DNA of 64,000 bases from contig CM059432.1 of assembly GCA_030390025.1 (NCBI GenBank), forward strand, positions 77,192,001-77,256,000, written 5' to 3'. Positions 1 through 51,000 of the stretch are shown in pieces; positions within the stretch are counted from its first letter, which is position 1, and every line of letters starts with the position of its first letter. Origin of the DNA: Squalus acanthias. Taxonomy: Eukaryota. The position numbers were made by a program, and so were the translations under genes. The notes below the pieces were generated by a model. It had not been told where the DNA came from, did no database searches, and saw only the letters and a program-made list of their open reading frames with translations.

Positions 1-1119
1 AGCAGAAAAGGACATTATATAGGCAATAGTATAGATTACAGCAGTTTTTTTTTGTTGGCAGGAACCCGGGTCCCATTGAACATTTTCAGGTCAAGTATGA
101 GCATGGGAAAGGTGTATAGCTCCCTCTACTCTGTTCTACCAATGAGCCCCTCAACTTCATTGCCTTTAGTACCAATATACCATTTCCAATTCCCACTTCA
201 GCCATCACTTTCCTAATGTTTAGTACCAATTGTTGTGGGCAATTTTTATGTTGAGCCACTGCCTACTAAAAGCTGGGTTGACAATGCCCAACTCATCCCC
301 CCCGCCGCCCCAAAATCCTTACAGGTAGCAGAAAGAGGAAACTTTCACCCCTATCCGAGCTGGATTTGAACCATGTATAAAGGTAATTTTACCCCACTAC
401 TATAATCTTCAGTCACTGAGATGGAAATTGGTTATGCCCGTTTTCAAATCCATAACCAGGAGCACACTGACAGCATTTGCCCCAACCGGGAGGCCCAAGG
501 CCCACCTAAAATTCGTCCTCGGGTCTCATTAACATATGTTTGCGTGAGTTGATGGCACCTGTCGCAAATCCACAGGCAGCTCGCGCATTTTACCAAGAGT
601 AATATCAGGCCACTTGCCTCGCCAGCAGCAGCCTGAAGTCAAGTCCCGAGAGGGGGGTTGGAGCATCAACAATCACTAGGACTGTGAAGTTGAGGGAGCA
701 CACCTGCTCCTCCTGGCTCAATAGCAACGATTTCTAAATTTAAAAAAATTACCTTACGTTGACAACCATAAGGGGCCGTTGAAGAATCCCGAGTGGAGCA
801 GAACTGGCTCCTGCTCCACTCATCACCAATCAATTTCGGCAATGGGATCTAAAATAGGCATTAGAGCCCTCATTTATATTTCATGGATGCCTGAAAAATG
901 GGCCTGATGATCTTAGCAGGGGCCGGAACACTTGTGGCGTGTGGGTGCATGCCATCCCACTGCTAAATTGTTTGCGCCTGTTGTACGCTCATAAAACGGG
1001 TGCAATGATGTTGAATTTAGGCCCCACTGTGTCTACATCCAGGATCTGTTTGCTTTGGCACACTGTAGTTATATAATTTGTTTTTTGGACTGTTACATTT
1101 AGTGTACAAAACTCTGTAA

Positions 1120-1690
1120 TGGAGTATTTTCTGTATCAGGTAATTTAGCAGCATGGATAGCAAATTGGTTGATGGATGAAAACAAGAGAGTTAGTGTACA
1201 TGGGTGTTACTCAGGTTGGAGATGGGTTGGAGGTACCCCAAGGGTCAGTGCTGGGTCCACCTTTGTTCTCAGTATATATAGCTGATTTGGCCTTGGTTAT
1301 AGGAAGCATAGGTGATTTGTATTTGGTTATAGGAAACACAATCTTGAAATATGAAGAAGAAGAAGAAGAAGAAGAAAGTGAAATGGGGCGGGTTGGAAAA
1401 CAGACGGCTGATCCAATCCCGTCAGTTTCCTGCTGGGCATGTTCGGTTAAAATGACCCTGAAGGGTTGTTGGAGCATTGAATTTGGAGCTTTGCCACAGG
1501 GAGCAGCTGAGGCAGAAATCTTTACATCTTTTAAGGGAAAGTTGAATAAATACTTAAAGCAGATGAAAATAGAGGGCTATGGGAAGAGTGAAGGGCAGTG
1601 GGATCAGTTTTAGATTGTTCTAGCAAAGAGCCAACACTGAAACAATGGGCCGAACGGTCTCCTGTGCTGTAAACTTCTATGGCTCTGTTA
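1120..1690 (+). mobile_element. Degenerate, internally deleted CR1 LINE fragment (RT motif and 3' end)
   Basis: VPQGSVLGPPLFSVYIADL RT motif; FTSFKGKLNKYLK ORF2 C-terminus; CR1-type 3' UTR ending ...gtgctgtaaacttctatg; interrupted by a (GAA)n tract at ~1352-1376. Confidence 0.8.
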
Positions 1691-2049
1691 ATAGCTGTAT
1701 GGTAGTGGTCCTTTTCACATGACTTTAATGCAGATTGCTGTAACATTGCTAAAAGCATTAAGGGATTGAATTTCCACAGGAGTTCTCCCAAACATCCTCC
1801 ATAACTTTAGCAGAAGATCCCCGGAAACCCTGGTAGATCCATTGGACCCCCTGTGACCCACCTCATTGTCTTAGCTGTACTCTGATGTGTCTTTGATGTA
1901 ATGCCTCCCTAACAGATTGTATCTCTGCAGACACATTGTTCTCTGTGTATATATACGGTTCTGATGTGGAGATGCCGGCGTTGGACTGGGGTGGACAAAA
2001 ATGAGAAGTCGCACAACACCAGGTTATAGTCCAACAGATTTATTTAATT

Positions 2050-2087
2050 TTACAAGCTTTCGGAGCTATCGCTCCTTCGTCAGGTAA
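2050..2087 (-). ncRNA. Minimal type-I hammerhead ribozyme motif
   Basis: Exact reverse complement of the 2640-2677 motif. Confidence 0.75.
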
Positions 2088-2639
2088 GTTAGCAATGAGA
2101 GAATCTCCCAGAATTCACAATTTAAACCCAGACAAAATCTATTCACATTATTCGCTACAACAAAGAGCACAGCCAAGACAATGAGATGTGTCCCAGGGGG
2201 TCCAGCGTGTCAAACCACCTGCTGGCTGCATATCCTGTCAATTTGTGTTCTTGTGTTTTTAAAAAAAAAACAAAAAAAAAACAAAACAAAAAAAAAACAA
2301 AAAAAAACACCTGGGAAGACCGGCCATGATGTCAAGTCACGTTCTGTATCGTGACATGAACCCGATATCGCGATATCGGGTTCATGTCACGATACAGAAC
2401 GTGACTTGACATCATGGCCGGTCTTCCCAGGTGTTTTTTTTTTTTGTTTTGTTTTTTTTTTTTTTTAAAAACACAAGAACACAAATTGACAGGATATGCA
2501 GCCAGCAGGTGGTTTGACACGCTGGACCCCCTGGGACACATCTCATTGTCTTGGCTGTGCTCTTTGTTGTAGCGAATAATGTGAATAGATTTTGTCTGGG
2601 TTTAAATTGTGAATTCTGGGAGATTCTCTCATTGCTAAC

Positions 2640-2677
2640 TTACCTGACGAAGGAGCGATAGCTCCGAAAGCTTGTAA
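2640..2677 (+). ncRNA. Minimal type-I hammerhead ribozyme motif
   Basis: ttac-CTGACGA-a-ggagc(gata)gctcc-GAA-AGCT-T-gtaa: stem I ttac/gtaa, CUGANGA core, stem II, GAAA, palindromic stem III. Confidence 0.75.
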
Positions 2678-2772
2678 AATTAAATAAATCTGTTGGACTA
2701 TAACCTGGTGTTGTGCGACTTCTCATTTTTATATATACGGTGTAATCGATTTGTATTCCCTCACTGTACCTG

Positions 2773-2807
2773 TACCTGAAGAAGGAGCGGAGCTCCGAAA
2801 GCTCGTA
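2773..2807 (+). ncRNA. Minimal type-I hammerhead ribozyme motif
   Basis: tac-CTGAAGA-a-ggagc(gga)gctcc-GAA-AGCT-C-gta. Confidence 0.7.
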
Positions 2808-3200
2808 ATTTTAAATAAAACTGTTGGACTATAACCTGGTGTTGTGCGACTTCTCATTTTAGATCCATTTATGCCAGGTGTTTGCAGATCTTAGCCGCAG
2901 TTACAGCAGACAGACAATCAGGAGAACCTCCGTTGAAATTCAACCCATCAAAGTTTTACCGGATAAAATAAAGCACATCCTGTCCTGTCTAAGGATGCCA
3001 CATAACCAGAGTAAAGAAGGATCAGTATTGTGTTTGGGAATCATGCAATGTTTGCAGCTAACACCATATTACTGCAGTCAATTTTTAAAACTGCTGTCCT
3101 TTTAATAGGTTTATAGTCTGAAGTAAATTTTAAATTCAGAATCAGATAGATGCAAAACAGAATCAAGTTTAGATCAAAGATTATTTATCTCAAAATCTAG

Positions 3201-4097
3201 GGGGGAAAAATTCAGTTGGTTGCACCTCCCGTTAGCGCCTTAAGAGGGCGCTAATGGGGCGCAAAGCAACTAGCGCCCGGGCGCGGTGATGTTTGCGCCG
3301 CTCACGAAATTAGCTAGACATTTTGCGGCGGCGCTAAACACTACCGCCACGATCTCCTGCGCCGGCAGATCGTGACGTCAGTCGAGTGTGCAACGCCCCG
3401 GTAGCGCCCCGGAGCGGATATTGAGTGGCGCCCCCTGCCTTACCGCCTGCCGCTAGCAACGACAGGTTGAGGGGCGCGTTTTGCAGTCAGGAAGGGACTG
3501 GGGGAGCGCTATTTAAAGGTGACCGCTTCCTGCCTTTTTTTGTTGGTGACATTTTTGAACCACGTATTCTGAGAGAGAGAGAGAGAGAGGGACTTCTGGA
3601 GAGATTAAAAGCTGTGTGAAGGAGTTTTGGATACTGAGCAGCACTTTGCAGGTTCATTTTGATTTGCCCTTCCTTGTATCGATTTAGAAGAGACTGTGGG
3701 GGTTGCACGCTGAGCTCTTTCCCTGGGCCTCTCCATTGTTCTTTCCAGCAGATTTGATGTACAGGTCTCTCCAGGCCGAGATTCAAGGCTGCAATGAGCA
3801 GGATGGGGATGGAAAGCAAGATCAACCCTCCCCTTTAAGAACTGGCCAGTGCCATTGTGTCTGTGTTCCATTGCTGACCGACATCACATGTGCTTCGCCA
3901 GCACTCTGAGTTAGCGCCTCGCTCCTCGACCTTTGCGCCTTAAGACAGATGTGTAGCGCCTGATTTAGCGCTCCAATCACCTCCATGGGCGATAAAAGTC
4001 AAGTTTGCAGTCGGAGGCGATAATTAGCGCCAGGCGCTAATCTTTGTGCCCGGCCGATAATTGCGCCCCAAACGGGGCGATTCTGAATTTTTCCCCC
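3201..4097 (+). mobile_element. ~900-bp non-autonomous PIF/Harbinger element (MITE), copy 1
   Basis: Perfect 15-bp TIR gggggaaaaattcag; 3-bp TSD TAG; close copies at 18364-19270 and 35119-36014. Confidence 0.9.
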
Positions 4098-4111
4098 TAG
4101 GAGTCCTATAA

Positions 4112-10877: not shown

Positions 10878-11115
10878 CAATAGCAAAATACTGCGGATGC
10901 TGGAAATCTGAAATAACAACAGAAAGTGCTGGAAACACTCAGCAGGTCAGGCAGCATCAAGGAGAGAGAAACAGAGTCAACGTTTCGGGTCGAACCCTTC
11001 GTCAGAACTCCTGTTCTGGGTTCTGACGAAGGGTTCGACCCGAAATGTTGACTCTGTTTCTCTCTCCTTGATGCTGCCTGACCTGCTGAGTGTTTCCAGC
11101 ACTTTCTGTTGTTAT
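10878..11115. mobile_element. Inverted-repeat Penelope-like insert (family 2) with two outward-facing hammerhead motifs
   Basis: 13-bp TSD aaccaattcagta (10865-10877 and 11116-11128); ~96-bp arms, 11-nt spacer; gtt-CTGACGA-a-gggt(tcg)accc-GAA-ACGT-T-gac on the minus strand, with ATGT in the plus-strand copy. Confidence 0.85.
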
Positions 11116-14100
11116 AACCAATTCAGTATATTTGCAATCTACAAGTTTGGACTGAAACACATCAAATTGCTGTTACTGCATATCAAGCACTACATGAGAG
11201 CAGATAATCTTTATTACAACATTATTGGGAATCATAATAGGTTTTTAAAAAATTTGAAAAAGTCTAAAAATTTAAAGCACAATTCAACACAATGAAAATG
11301 GCTAAGATTTCATCGACTGATTTATTCATATTGTTGTGCGAAATATCAATCACTATTAAAGAAAACACAACACAGAAGAAAACCTGCAGGATCATCTAAA
11401 AAGTTAGAAATGAAGACAGACGGCCACACTGAATTCAGCGCACAAAAACGCATGCACTTGACAAGAGGAGAAAAAGGACCAACAAAATTTAATGCATGCA
11501 ATTGACAAAAGTTGTTTTCATTAGATGGGACAGATTGCTACATGTCTGACTGATTTTATCTGTTTGATTACCCTTTGAGGGGCCGAGCAATGAGCAGCTT
11601 TTAGGTTCACAGGCCTCAAACAGCCCAAGATTCATGCTAATAAAAAGCCTTTCACTAACACAGACTGAACAATCGAATTAAAGCTTTATTTATTGGCGCT
11701 AAATATCTTGCTCAGTTTTCAACCATACGGTCCATTTCACTCCATCAGCTCTTCACAATGGTTGTGAGGCTGGACAATCTGTCTTGTGTCTGTATTGGGT
11801 AAAGCTCCAACTGACCAGCATCAATTAAAGAACAAAAACACACAAAAAACTGAAACTCATTAAAATAAACTTTTAATGGAAAGACTTCACAATTGCAATT
11901 GAATTGATGTGCTTTCTTTTTGCTGGTGAAAAGTGCATAATTGAGCCATACATTCATTTGCTTTTGCCTTGTGCCTTTATGTGAATTTTAACTTTTGGTT
12001 CCTCCCAACAGTCCTTTAAACAATTCAAAAAGAACCACAAAAGAAATGATGCATTTTTATTGAGCAGAATTATCAGTCCATTACTCCAACTTAAAAATGC
12101 ACCTCTTTGATTTTGCTGGCCACCAGATGTCCATACTCACGTCTACATGCTCAAATTGCTAGCACAAGAAGTGACTTGCACACAGAGCAGTGATCAGGTG
12201 TCAGCATATAACAATAGACACTACATCAACTCGAGCTGCAGCAGTGAGATCAGTGCTTTGCCAATATAATCAGATGCACTCATTTCTCCATGGAAATTCT
12301 GAATTTCAGGGCAGCAGTATTTGCTCAGCACATGTGCTAAGATTTCTTTAAAAAATGTATTCTACAATATTGCAGGAATAAGTGTTTTTCCTAATTAACA
12401 CAAAGAATGTATCTTTCACGTCAAAACACTCTCAGAACCACTTGCACATCCAAAAGTTCAAATGGGAATTGTCTTCATAACTGTTATTGATAAGTCATTT
12501 CCTTTATTTGCCAACACATGATATGATCATGTAGAACCCATCAGTGGTGTCACGTTGTGTTGTCTAATTGGCATAAAACTCTTCAGTCTCGTTTCTCTCT
12601 CCTTGAACAAAGAAAGTCTACCAAACCCACGTAGAATGTTCAACTAGGCAATACATATCTCAAAAATAATTCACCTCAAAACATTTACCCTGGCAGGTGG
12701 CAAACATCATGCGGGCCCATTTTGCGACTATGCGCTGTATAAAGTACCGCACAGTACTTCAAAGTTACAACCATTTTTCTGAAAATGCCATCCCAGTTCT
12801 CCACAAGAGTGAACTGATGTGCGAGACGCTGTAGCAAACAAAGAGTGTCCCTTCTGGTGAAACAGTGGACAAAATGAGGTGAACTGTGATAAGCAATTTG
12901 GAGACTCGAGGGAAAATTTGACAAGGAAAGCTGCTTCAAAAGCAAGGAGATGGGAGAACTGCTGAAAAGTTTTTATACTTTAACAAAAATTAAACAAGTG
13001 CATGCAGTAGGTAAAGTAGAAATCATTGCTTCACTAACCCAGAGGAATGTAGTCACATTTGCACCAAAATAAAACATTTTAGTTTTAGTTCATTGAAACA
13101 ATATGGGATATTTTTTCTGGTCAAAAACATAAAGTAGACCTGAATAATCAGTGAGCATGACTGGTAAAATGTGGTTAAAGGTCTATGCTAAGTTGCACAG
13201 AGACAAAGATTTAAAAAAAGTGAACCTTGAACTCCATACAGAACATGTGCTATGAACAACAACAATTCTAACCAGCAATACAGCCAGCTATGAGGCTGAG
13301 GCAGTAGCGTCAGGCTATTTGACTGTTGGACATTCAAACAGAATATAGGCAACAAAGTGGCTATTTATTGCTGGAGCTTCCAGAAAAAAGAAAACTGAAG
13401 CAAAACATTATGCATAATTCAAGACAGAGATAAGCTACAGACTGCCCTGCCAAGAATGACAAAAAAAACTTAACATAAACTGAATATTCCTGATGTGTAA
13501 GGTTGTAAAATATTGTAGCAGCTACAGTTCCTTGACACTGAAATACCATCAATGCTGAACACTGTCAACAGCAGCACTGTTTCTGCAGTTCTGAGAATAA
13601 ACAACATAAGAAAATAAGAACATAAGAAATAGGAGCAGGAGTAGGCCATTCAGTGTCCTGTTACCATGTCCCTCATAGTAGATTCCAGCATTTCCCTACC
13701 ACGGACGTCAGTATTACCTGTGCCCAAGTCGGAAGTTATTATTTTGATTCTGTTGAAACTTAACTCTTTAAAAGATTTCAGTTGCACTTCAAATTCAATT
13801 TTCCTTTCCTCAGAACAGAGGAGGAGATTTTGAGGCCTGTCACTCAACAGAAATGGGTATTGTAGGGGAAATGGTGGGGAATGACTTTTGGCCGCATTCA
13901 CGCTATCGATGTTGCCAGAACTAACTTTCCCCGGGGCTATCGCTGAGTGGCCAGAGTGTCCACCTAAGTCAGGTGATTGACGCTTTTACTATGCAAATTG
14001 ACGGACCCGTTTGCCATTTTAGGACAGTACTGGGCGGAGGGTGCACCACGCATGCTCCGCCCAGTATCAGCTGATGGTCCAGCCAAAGAGGAGCCATAAT

Positions 14101-17398: not shown

Positions 17399-17691
17399 AA
17401 CAGAAAATGCTGGAAATACTCAGCAGGTCAGGCAGCATAAGTGGAGAGAGAAGCAAAGTTAACGTTTCAGGTTGATGACTTATCAGAACTAGAAAATGCT
17501 ACAGATCTAACAGGTTTTAAGCAAATACAGAGGCAGGGAAAGGGGGATTTTCCAGTTCTGATGATAGGTCATCGACCTGAAACGTTAACTCTGTTTCTCT
17601 CGCCACAGATGCTGCCTGACCTGCTGAGTATTTCCAGCATTTACTGTTTTTATTTCAGATTTCCAGCATCTGCAGTATTTTGCTTTTGTAT
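17399..17691. mobile_element. Inverted-repeat Penelope-like insert (family 2)
   Basis: 14-bp TSD tttttttaaataag (17385-17398 and 17692-17705); hammerhead agtt-CTGATGA-t-aggtc(atc)gacct-GAA-ACGT-T-aact at ~17554-17590. Confidence 0.85.
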
Positions 17692-33339: not shown

Positions 33340-34680
33340 TGTGCTATCTCATTTATTGGAACGCTGTGTAATGAGGCGATCACGAACGGCCCTTGCAGAA
33401 GCAAGATTGAGTGCCTCCCTCCTACGTTACTGCTGCTCCTCCTCCTCCGGCCCCTCTTCCTCCTCCTGCCCGTCTTCCTGCTCCTGAGGTGGACCTGCAA
33501 TCCCTGTTGGCAATGGCTGGGCCCTCAGAATGACCAGGTTGTGCAGCATGCAGCACACAACAATGAAAAGGGAGACTCAATCAGGGGAGTATTGCAGGGC
33601 TCCTCCAAAGCGGTCAAGGCAGGGGAGCCGTTGCTTTAGCACCCAGACAGTCTGTTCGATCAGGTTCCTGGTGGTGCTATGGCTGTCGTTGTATGCGTGT
33701 TGAGCAGGAGTGTTGGGTTGCGGAGGGGTGTCATCAGCCAGGTGGCGAGTGGATAACCCTAGTCTCCGAGCAGCCAGCCGGGAGCTTCATGTGGTGGGTG
33801 GAACAGTGCTGGGACACCAGTCTATCGCAGGATGAATGCATCGTGGCTGCTGCCAGGATAGTGGGCATTGAGGGCGAGGATGAGCTGTCTGTGGTCGCAC
33901 ACCAACTGGAGTGGTAGCCTTTGTGGTTACGGAACATCTCTGCATTGTGATGAGGTGCCCGCAATGCCACATGCGTGCAGTCAATGGCGCCCTGAACCAT
34001 GGGGAAGCCCGCTATCCTTGCAAAGCCACATGAGCGTTCATCTATTGTAAATCTATTTCATTTCCTGCTTTTTTCCAGTTCTGACGAAAGGTCTTCGACC
34101 TGAAACGTTAACTCTGTTTCTCTCTCCACGGATGCTGCCTGGCCTGCTAGTTTTTCCAGCGTTTTCTGTTGTTATTTCGGATTTCCAGCATCCGCAGTAT
34201 TTTGCTATCGTATGAGCGTTCATCCTGTTTCTCCCTGGTCATGGGGAGTGAGATGTACTCCCTTCTCCTTCTGTACAGAGCATCTGTCACCTCCTAGATG
34301 CAGCAATGGATGGCGAACTGCAAAATGTTTGCAATATCCCCTGCTGAAGCCTGGAAGGAGCCGCTGGCGTAGAAATTGAGAGCGACTATGACCTTCACTG
34401 CCACTGAGAAAGATGTCCTGGTCCTGATCTGAGGCTGGAGGTCTGGCTGCAGGAGGTGGCAAACCTCTGTGACCACCTCCTTGCTGAAGTGGAGCCTTCT
34501 AAGGCAATGCTCTTTTGACAGATGAATGTAGGAGAACTGCTTCCAGAATACCCTGGGAGGGTAAGGTCTACTGTTGAGAGCCCTGTTGTCCCTCCTCCCT
34601 CTGGCCACGTTTTCCAATCTTTCGCTTTGCCTCCGACAGTGAAGCTGAAGGGCGAGGTCCAGTGACAGTACAGCTCCCAT
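33340..34680 (-). pseudogene. HARBI1-type DDE transposase pseudogene
   Basis: ALNFYASGSFQ, VQGAIDCTHVAL, YPGSSHD, WLLGD*GYP, TRNLIEQT..LKQR; frameshifts, stops and a Penelope-like insertion. Confidence 0.9.
34043..34211 (+). mobile_element. Penelope-like pLTR (family 2) inserted in the Harbinger transposase
   Basis: 13-bp TSD atgagcgttcatc (34030-34042 and 34212-34224); intact hammerhead agtt-CTGACGA-a-aggtc(ttc)gacct-GAA-ACGT-T-aact. Confidence 0.85.
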
Positions 34681-50596: not shown

Positions 50597-50901
50597 ATAA
50601 TGTATAATGCACGTTAGTGGTATAAAATGTTGATACCATTAAGGTTCCATGATCACAGAACTCATGAAAGACCATCATGAATGGGATGTGTGCTTTGCAA
50701 CCTAATTAGTGCAGATTAAGTATGTACTTTAAAATAAAGCTAAACTTTCTTTTTAAACTGTATTTTTATTGCTATACTTCTCTGTTCATAGGGTAAAGCA
50801 GCATCCGAGTGACAAGTCTGAAATGAGCAATCCCAAAGTCTGAAGACTGAAGTCTGGTGCACTCAGAGAGCAGTCAGTTACAAAGCCTATGGTAGTTGAC
50901 T

Positions 50902-51000
50902 TCACCTGAGGAAGGGGCAATCGATAGCTCCGAAAGCTTGTGATTTCAAATAAAACTGTTGGACTATAACCTGGTGTTGTGCGACCTCTCAATTTTGTTG
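50902..51000 (+). mobile_element. Penelope-like pLTR fragment (family 1) with hammerhead motif
   Basis: tcac-CTGAGGA-a-ggggc...gctcc-GAA-AGCT-T-gtga then aataaaactgttggactataacctggtgttgtgcgac. Confidence 0.75.

Follow-up and report, generated by a model that had tools for sequence, protein, structure and literature searches.

The palindromic unit found in the window (the whole stretch of 64,000 nucleotides of Squalus acanthias DNA analysed here) is almost certainly an inverted insertion of a Penelope-like element (PLE). The best overall explanation, and in our view a probable one, is a young 5'-truncated inverted Penelope insertion whose centre lies on a native palindrome of the parent element and which was likely twin-primed. 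Inverted pLTRs with junction palindromes are an already published structure, of which the window unit is a real and young example. The same centre is found at other loci, and this recurring centre is a microhomology hotspot and not a mobile palindrome. Furthermore, a family-wide rule emerges, by which each inverted insertion has one tail, on either arm, and one haplotype across its arms.

Alignment of the two arms (1997-2370 and 2371-2730) displays no substitution and zero spacer at the centre, and the only differences are two indels of 6 and 8 nt, both within the A/C tract. This agrees with the loop-less palindrome described in an earlier note on this DNA, identical between arms except for the A/C tract, and the absence of substitutions between the arms agrees with the very young age proposed there. 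The exact palindrome extends 72 nt either side of the boundary between 2370 and 2371 and is the sole perfect palindrome with arms of at least 8 nt across the 64-kb window. The 12-bp TSD (TATATATACGGT) and the one-arm tail of about 37 nt that had also been reported were both located (1948-1959 with 2730-2741, and 1960-1996 respectively); the T at 2730 can be assigned to the arm or to the TSD, and the 37-nt tail is present on the left side only, its family-derived part matching other copies over 35-38 nt. The final 10 codons of the parent ORF, with its stop, are contained in each arm, so that the description of the unit as a very young non-coding insertion holds for its youth and fails for its non-coding origin. 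The whole unit is nested within an older pLTR stub (1844-2859), which has its own 10-bp TSD (Table 1).

Table 1. Features of the palindromic insertion and of the older stub that surrounds it, in window coordinates
Feature	Position	Strand	Remark
TSD of the older pLTR stub, left copy	1834..1843		identical 10-mer at 2860-2869
5' part of older, diverged Penelope pLTR stub (insertion target)	1844..1947	+	88% to 2523-2563 over 41 nt, by alignment
Left 12-bp TSD of the palindromic insertion	1948..1959		
One-sided tail, parent sequence between pLTR end and ORF start codon	1960..1996	-	matches L039 just upstream of ATG; on one arm at 8/8 exact-centre loci
Left arm, Penelope-like element 3' end, antisense	1997..2370	-	
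Minimal type I hammerhead motif, left arm	2049..2088	-	core 2083-2058; predicted cut between 2054 and 2053, from canonical numbering
A/C tract, left arm	2261..2307		14 nt longer than right-arm tract
Centre, native 8-nt palindrome ATCG/CGAT of the parent ORF	2367..2374		codons for N-R-D of GLNRD
Right arm, element 3' end, sense, without tail	2371..2729	+	
End of the parent ORF, 10 codons plus stop (DIGFMSRYRT*)	2372..2404	+	mirrored at 2337-2369 (-)
T/G tract, right arm	2434..2466		
Minimal type I hammerhead motif, right arm	2639..2678	+	core 2644-2669; predicted cut between 2673 and 2674
Right 12-bp TSD of the palindromic insertion	2730..2741		
3' part of the older host stub	2742..2859	+	own hammerhead motif 2771-2810; 94% to 2660-2729 over 70 nt
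TSD of the older pLTR stub, right copy	2860..2869		

The landing site of the young element is the AT-rich TATATATAC stretch of this older related pLTR stub. At another locus (L110), the same AT-rich stretch is uninterrupted and lies beside another inverted unit. pLTR sequences are possibly preferred targets.

Perfect palindromes are a known long-read artefact, and the unit could in principle result from fold-back during sequencing or from assembly. No sequenced piece was found to cross the unit or the junction on its left (four runs over 1500-3200 and four over 1880-2000, the target and the insert both being high-copy repeats), and the 24 sequencing runs listed were all assembled contigs. However, the unit is bounded by a TSD, its tail and tract are asymmetric and its flanks are not mirrored. 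Moreover, nine loci with the same centre have distinct TSDs and haplotypes, and a TSD of at least 9 nt is observed in 92 of 99 inverted copies, with exactly 12 nt in 50 of them. An artefact is hence extremely improbable. A separate candidate, an A>G difference at 1794 taken as RNA editing, was rejected since it is present in DNA runs too.

A 32-mer taken from the arm is matched 5,620 times in the 3.7-Gb assembly, and at the 30 loci fetched the sequence runs on beyond the centre into an ORF. The locus L039 contains a partial tandem in which an ORF of 892 aa is intact, at 817-3495(-), its last residues being GLNRDIGFMSRYRT; the 3' end of the L039 element shows 95-97% identity to the arm. This ORF displays an RVT_1 domain (E 2e-8) with YIDD, an endonuclease core VVY-CxxxC-YIG at residue 790 and, in the RT-EN linker, a C-x4-CxxC motif (CHGNLCKTC at residue 753). 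Its nearest named homologues are shark proteins with 80-92% identity. GIY-YIG was not called by Pfam on the L039 query itself, and PF01541 was called on many of its homologues. By these motifs, L039 is an autonomous EN+ Penelope-like element with RT and C-terminal GIY-YIG in a single ORF. The arm therefore corresponds to the final 10 codons of this element together with its 3' UTR and pLTR, and the tail to the stretch leading to the next start codon in the partial tandem. The earlier note had called the element Penelope-like and had suggested a search for an autonomous GIY-YIG/RT partner with the same pLTR; the identity is supported by the match of the arm to the L039 3' end and by the tail and inverted pLTR, which are typical of PLEs, and L039 is such a partner.

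The features expected of EN+ PLEs were all found in the family, namely a single ORF with RT and GIY-YIG, a partial-tandem pLTR, inverted truncated copies, a 30-40-bp tail at one end, a TSD and a minimal hammerhead descriptor in the pLTR. In the portions of Arkhipova et al. 2013 (PMC3846280) and Craig 2021 (PMC8557442) considered here, EN+ PLEs likewise show an inverted 5'-truncated copy, a one-sided tail of 30-40 bp and a TSD, as well as junction palindromes and a parent with RT, C-terminal GIY-YIG and partial tandems, a role taken here by L039. The family differs from those described in these papers in being very large and young, which permits counting (a tail on one arm in 98/99 copies, independent of arm length), and in that its centres track native micro-palindromes. 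According to the sections on clade features in Craig et al. 2021 (PMC8557442), the Neptune clade is marked by a CX2-5CxxC motif in the RT-EN linker and by a C-terminal EN in which a Cys pair separates GIY from YIG. L039 resembles this clade in its C-terminal EN, its GIY/YIG Cys pair and its linker motif of the CX2-5CxxC type. The linker and the Cys pair thus point to Neptune/Nematis rather than Penelope/Poseidon, in a class assigned by motif. No shark Neptune elements were found in the literature searched.

The hammerhead on each arm that had been noticed earlier matches minimal descriptors at 2639-2678 (+) and 2088-2049 (-), with a helix I of 4 bp, a helix II of 5 bp and a palindromic AGCT in place of helix III. 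In Rfam, neither a hammerhead nor any other family passed the threshold, and the sub-threshold miRNA-type hits were generic hairpin matches. The architecture is that of minimal motifs in metazoan PLEs (Cervera and De la Pena 2014, PMC4209133); in the results given in that paper's covered part, a single minimal motif showed no detectable cleavage while dimers cleaved weakly, and opposite-strand motif pairs 100-700 bp apart were already noted. Either strand of the window unit is predicted to fold as one rod, 94-95% paired at ~-670 kcal/mol, in which the hammerhead is paired to the other arm with a predicted probability of ~1. Non-LTR retrozymes, as presented in the part of bioRxiv 10.64898/2026.07.22.740005 covered here, share with the unit a type I hammerhead, a non-autonomous nature and PLE-derived sequence. 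However, they consist of monomers in direct tandem that carry at least two hammerheads on the same strand, whereas the window unit is inverted with one motif per strand, and direct tandem monomers with same-strand hammerheads were not observed within it. A second motif on the + strand (2771-2810) lies beyond the TSD of the palindrome and is part of the older host stub. The analogy with retrozyme or viroid-like RNAs drawn in the earlier note therefore loses its ground, given one hammerhead per strand, for which complete pairing with the other arm is predicted.

The centre is found at eight exact loci, all with a tail on one side, and at a ninth with one CpG-type SNP, and each of the nine has a separate TSD of 12-14 bp. 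Thus the recurrence of the centre with independent TSDs, which the earlier note had put forward for checking, is observed at nine loci, and its opposite case, in which every other inverted copy is centred differently, does not apply. In this family, inversion is the rule. Among the first 100 matches listed of the arm 32-mer, 14 convergent pairs were counted, corresponding to ~790 inverted copies genome-wide as a rough extrapolation from one contig, counted from the matches listed; the window's own subfamily gives 27 inverted pairs (counted by eye) in its first 100 matches listed, and the subfamily of L005, L007 and L078 gives 21 in 100. Junctions number 25 within 30 nt of the centre and 149 just upstream, older subfamilies included, and the same-centre class represents about 1% of inverted copies. 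Other centres recur across subfamilies as well: GAAGG/CCTTC (a slash marks the junction) is found in L091, L095 and L122, and GAGG/CCTC is shared by L064 and L079, which belong to different subfamilies. At L002, a second short inverted unit made of pLTR plus tail (L002:980-1160) directly adjoins the same-centre palindrome.

A recurring centre had led the earlier note to propose that the palindrome itself is the mobile unit, that is, a loop-less non-autonomous element, retrozyme-like or MITE-like, spreading with a fixed centre. One centre at nine loci with their own TSDs is what such an element would give, and haplotypes are shared by the trio L005, L007 and L078 and by the pair L001 and L003. 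In order to place the same-centre loci, a tree of 74 arm sequences was used, with the tract excluded and a few rows representing one locus fetched twice. On this tree the nine loci require 7 changes, at least 5 of which are forced by well-supported branches, and a single origin was observed in 0 of 200 bootstrap trees, the bootstrap being unsettled. The divergence among them reaches 8.9%. The nine same-centre loci are polyphyletic, falling on at least 5 subfamily branches, which refutes the set of nine as a single mobile palindrome, and a single clade with private variants, as expected of a self-propagating family, was not found among the same-centre copies. Furthermore, the window copy is 0.0% divergent outside the tract from L036, L042 and L038, three copies without the same centre, and it was very probably formed at insertion instead of being copied from another palindrome.

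The trio L005, L007 and L078 belongs to one subfamily, with 185 matches genome-wide, and shows a mild excess of same-centre copies (3 of ~39 inverted copies vs 2 of ~175, P 0.04, uncorrected and with extrapolated denominators). No private variant shared by the three was found relative to the fetched copies of their subfamily, in a test of low power. A deletion considered as a private marker of the trio was rejected, being common to the whole subfamily. Besides these at least five origins and the trio without a private variant, the small share of same-centre loci among inverted copies, the recurrence of other centres across subfamilies and a single hammerhead per strand that is predicted to be sequestered in the rod (pairing probability ~1.0) all argue against the spread of a mobile palindrome, which we consider improbable. 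The earlier proposal thus gives way to a polyphyletic set of loci centred on a native micro-palindrome of the parent ORF. It is just as doubtful that a minority of loop-less palindromes would be self-propagating, with the trio as such a lineage, a hairpin-RNA non-autonomous parasite of Penelope. If this were true, twin-primed cDNAs of a palindrome transcript would turn complementary past the centre and rebuild the same element exactly.

At the centre the parent reads CTCAATCG directly followed by CGATATCGG, which constitutes a native 8-nt palindrome. Over its final 600 nt the parent has three 8-nt palindromes, all within 22 nt, plus TTTT/AAAA in the tract. The loop-less junctions at these three number 9 for ATCG/CGAT, 2 for CTCA/TGAG and 1 for CGAT/ATCG. 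The predicted self-duplex energy of the favoured ATCG/CGAT is -10.0 kcal/mol, compared to -8.1 and -8.4 kcal/mol for the others, a ranking of three sites only in which the two weaker ones are not ordered by energy. In contrast to these duplexes, hairpins of the 8-nt palindromes are predicted to be unstable (+1.2 to +2.5). Near the centre 16 of 25 junctions are loop-less, vs 4 of the 49 upstream (P 8e-7, in a junction sample picked by position and hence non-random), and looped junctions display microhomology of at least 2 nt in 28 of 51. 'Loop-less' therefore only means a microhomology that happens to be palindromic. Under the twin priming proposed below, the same centre would arise repeatedly in different subfamilies because two cDNAs that both end at ATCGCGAT would pair over 8 bp with no spacer.

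In order to examine the ends of the inverted copies, 124 junction rows were reduced by 17 duplicates and 8 miscalls to a set of 99, into which L065, whose right arm is interrupted, was not recovered. The tail is present on exactly one arm in 98 of these 99 copies, and the outer ends cluster in two windows ~38 nt apart. Of the 63 copies with a loop of at least 8 nt, 33 have a short-arm tail and 30 a long-arm one; with 5 more doubtful rows removed, the figures are 32 and 28 of 60, at all loop sizes, and for loops of at least 100 nt they are 9 and 7 of 16. Both arms of a copy carry one haplotype, with a median arm divergence of 0.36% within loci vs 4.3% between loci (48 pairs). At L002 the arms show 8 differences within a patch, 6 of them at shared variable sites, the patch having alleles of another subfamily. 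In four inverted copies (L045, L048, L050 and L052) the arms reach 1-3 kb and take in near-full ORFs, so that this rule for the ends seems to hold whatever the length of truncation.

We infer, with somewhat better than even confidence, that the arms were made by twin priming from both target nicks, with two RT start sites on one RNA. The endonuclease of the element would nick both target strands ~12 bp apart, and each nick would prime reverse transcription on one RNA, from a start site that includes the tail in one case and from a start site without it, ~38 nt away, in the other. Both cDNAs would then halt early and pair via microhomology, and repair would fill in the joined cDNAs. The product would be a dead-on-arrival copy, whose hammerheads are inherited from the pLTR. 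The tail rule is explained by such a model and not by simple self-priming. It is possible that a duplex palindromic intermediate with one end trimmed at random gives the same 50:50 tail split, and the identity of the arms could also be explained by two RNAs of one source locus or by arm-to-arm conversion.

Fold-back provides another route, in which one cDNA or antisense RNA self-primes at a micro-palindrome and the endonuclease step then removes one tail. This accounts for the identical arms, for the microhomology of looped junctions and for the recurrent centres, and self-priming was proposed for junction palindromes of this kind in Arkhipova et al. 2013 (PMC3846280, in the part that reports them). 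However, simple fold-back is contradicted by about half of the looped copies, because the short arm would be a copy of the long arm, unable to hold extra terminal sequence; yet it carries a tail absent from the long arm in 33/63 copies, and in 9/16 of those with loops of at least 100 nt. An extra step of random trimming would be needed, and exactly one tail is nevertheless found in 98/99 copies. The predicted instability of the 8-nt hairpins also speaks against self-priming, as do the L002 arms, drawn from two haplotypes over the patch, although later gene conversion could explain these too. Taken together, fold-back appears unlikely, at roughly less than half the weight given to twin priming, and the fold-back second-strand synthesis proposed in the earlier note is disfavoured because roughly every second looped copy has its tail on the short arm.

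Turning back to twin priming, the anole PLE protein PAc, a predicted dimer, nicks and extends both strands in vitro, and its RT starts at two positions that flank the tail (Frangieh et al. 2024, PMC11167929); these data concern a Poseidon element, of a different clade from the apparently Neptune-type family studied here. The two systems are alike in their two RT start zones bounding the tail, in AT-rich targets including the pLTR and in a pLTR hammerhead, as far as described in the part of the paper covered. They differ in that the PAc start sites lie 111-118 nt inside the ORF while the tail ends here at about the start codon, and that same part of the Poseidon work models no inverted-copy formation. 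Craig 2021 (PMC8557442), in the part considered, presents the inverted copy with its tail as general, with an undefined mechanism, and states the formation of inverted copies and one-sided tails of PLEs as unresolved. No twin-priming model for PLE inversion was found in the literature searched; older reviews may discuss one.

The proposed twin priming with its microhomology join would work like that of L1. In L1, as reportedly put forward by Ostertag and Kazazian in 2001, both nicks prime cDNA on one RNA and joining by microhomology leads to an inversion. The second priming of L1 is internal and variable, so that a different segment is inverted, whereas here both primings would occur at fixed near-3' sites and duplicate the same segment into a palindrome.

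Through this family, hundreds of near-perfect palindromes are scattered over a vertebrate genome; they may be regarded as potential sources of long dsRNA and potential fragile sites. Elsewhere in the window, a smaller inverted unit at 10900-11120 belongs to a different hammerhead-bearing repeat family and has outward-facing motifs at 10983-11005 (-) and 11023-11045 (+) separated by a short spacer. A GC-rich stretch of ~900 bp (~3196-4100) has short inverted ends (CTAGGGGG...AAAAATTCAG / CTGAATTTTT...CCCCTAG) and is possibly a non-autonomous DNA transposon. Finally, solitary minimal hammerhead motifs of the PLE type are found at 17553-17590, 34076-34113 and 50901-50980, in which helix II is changed and still pairing.
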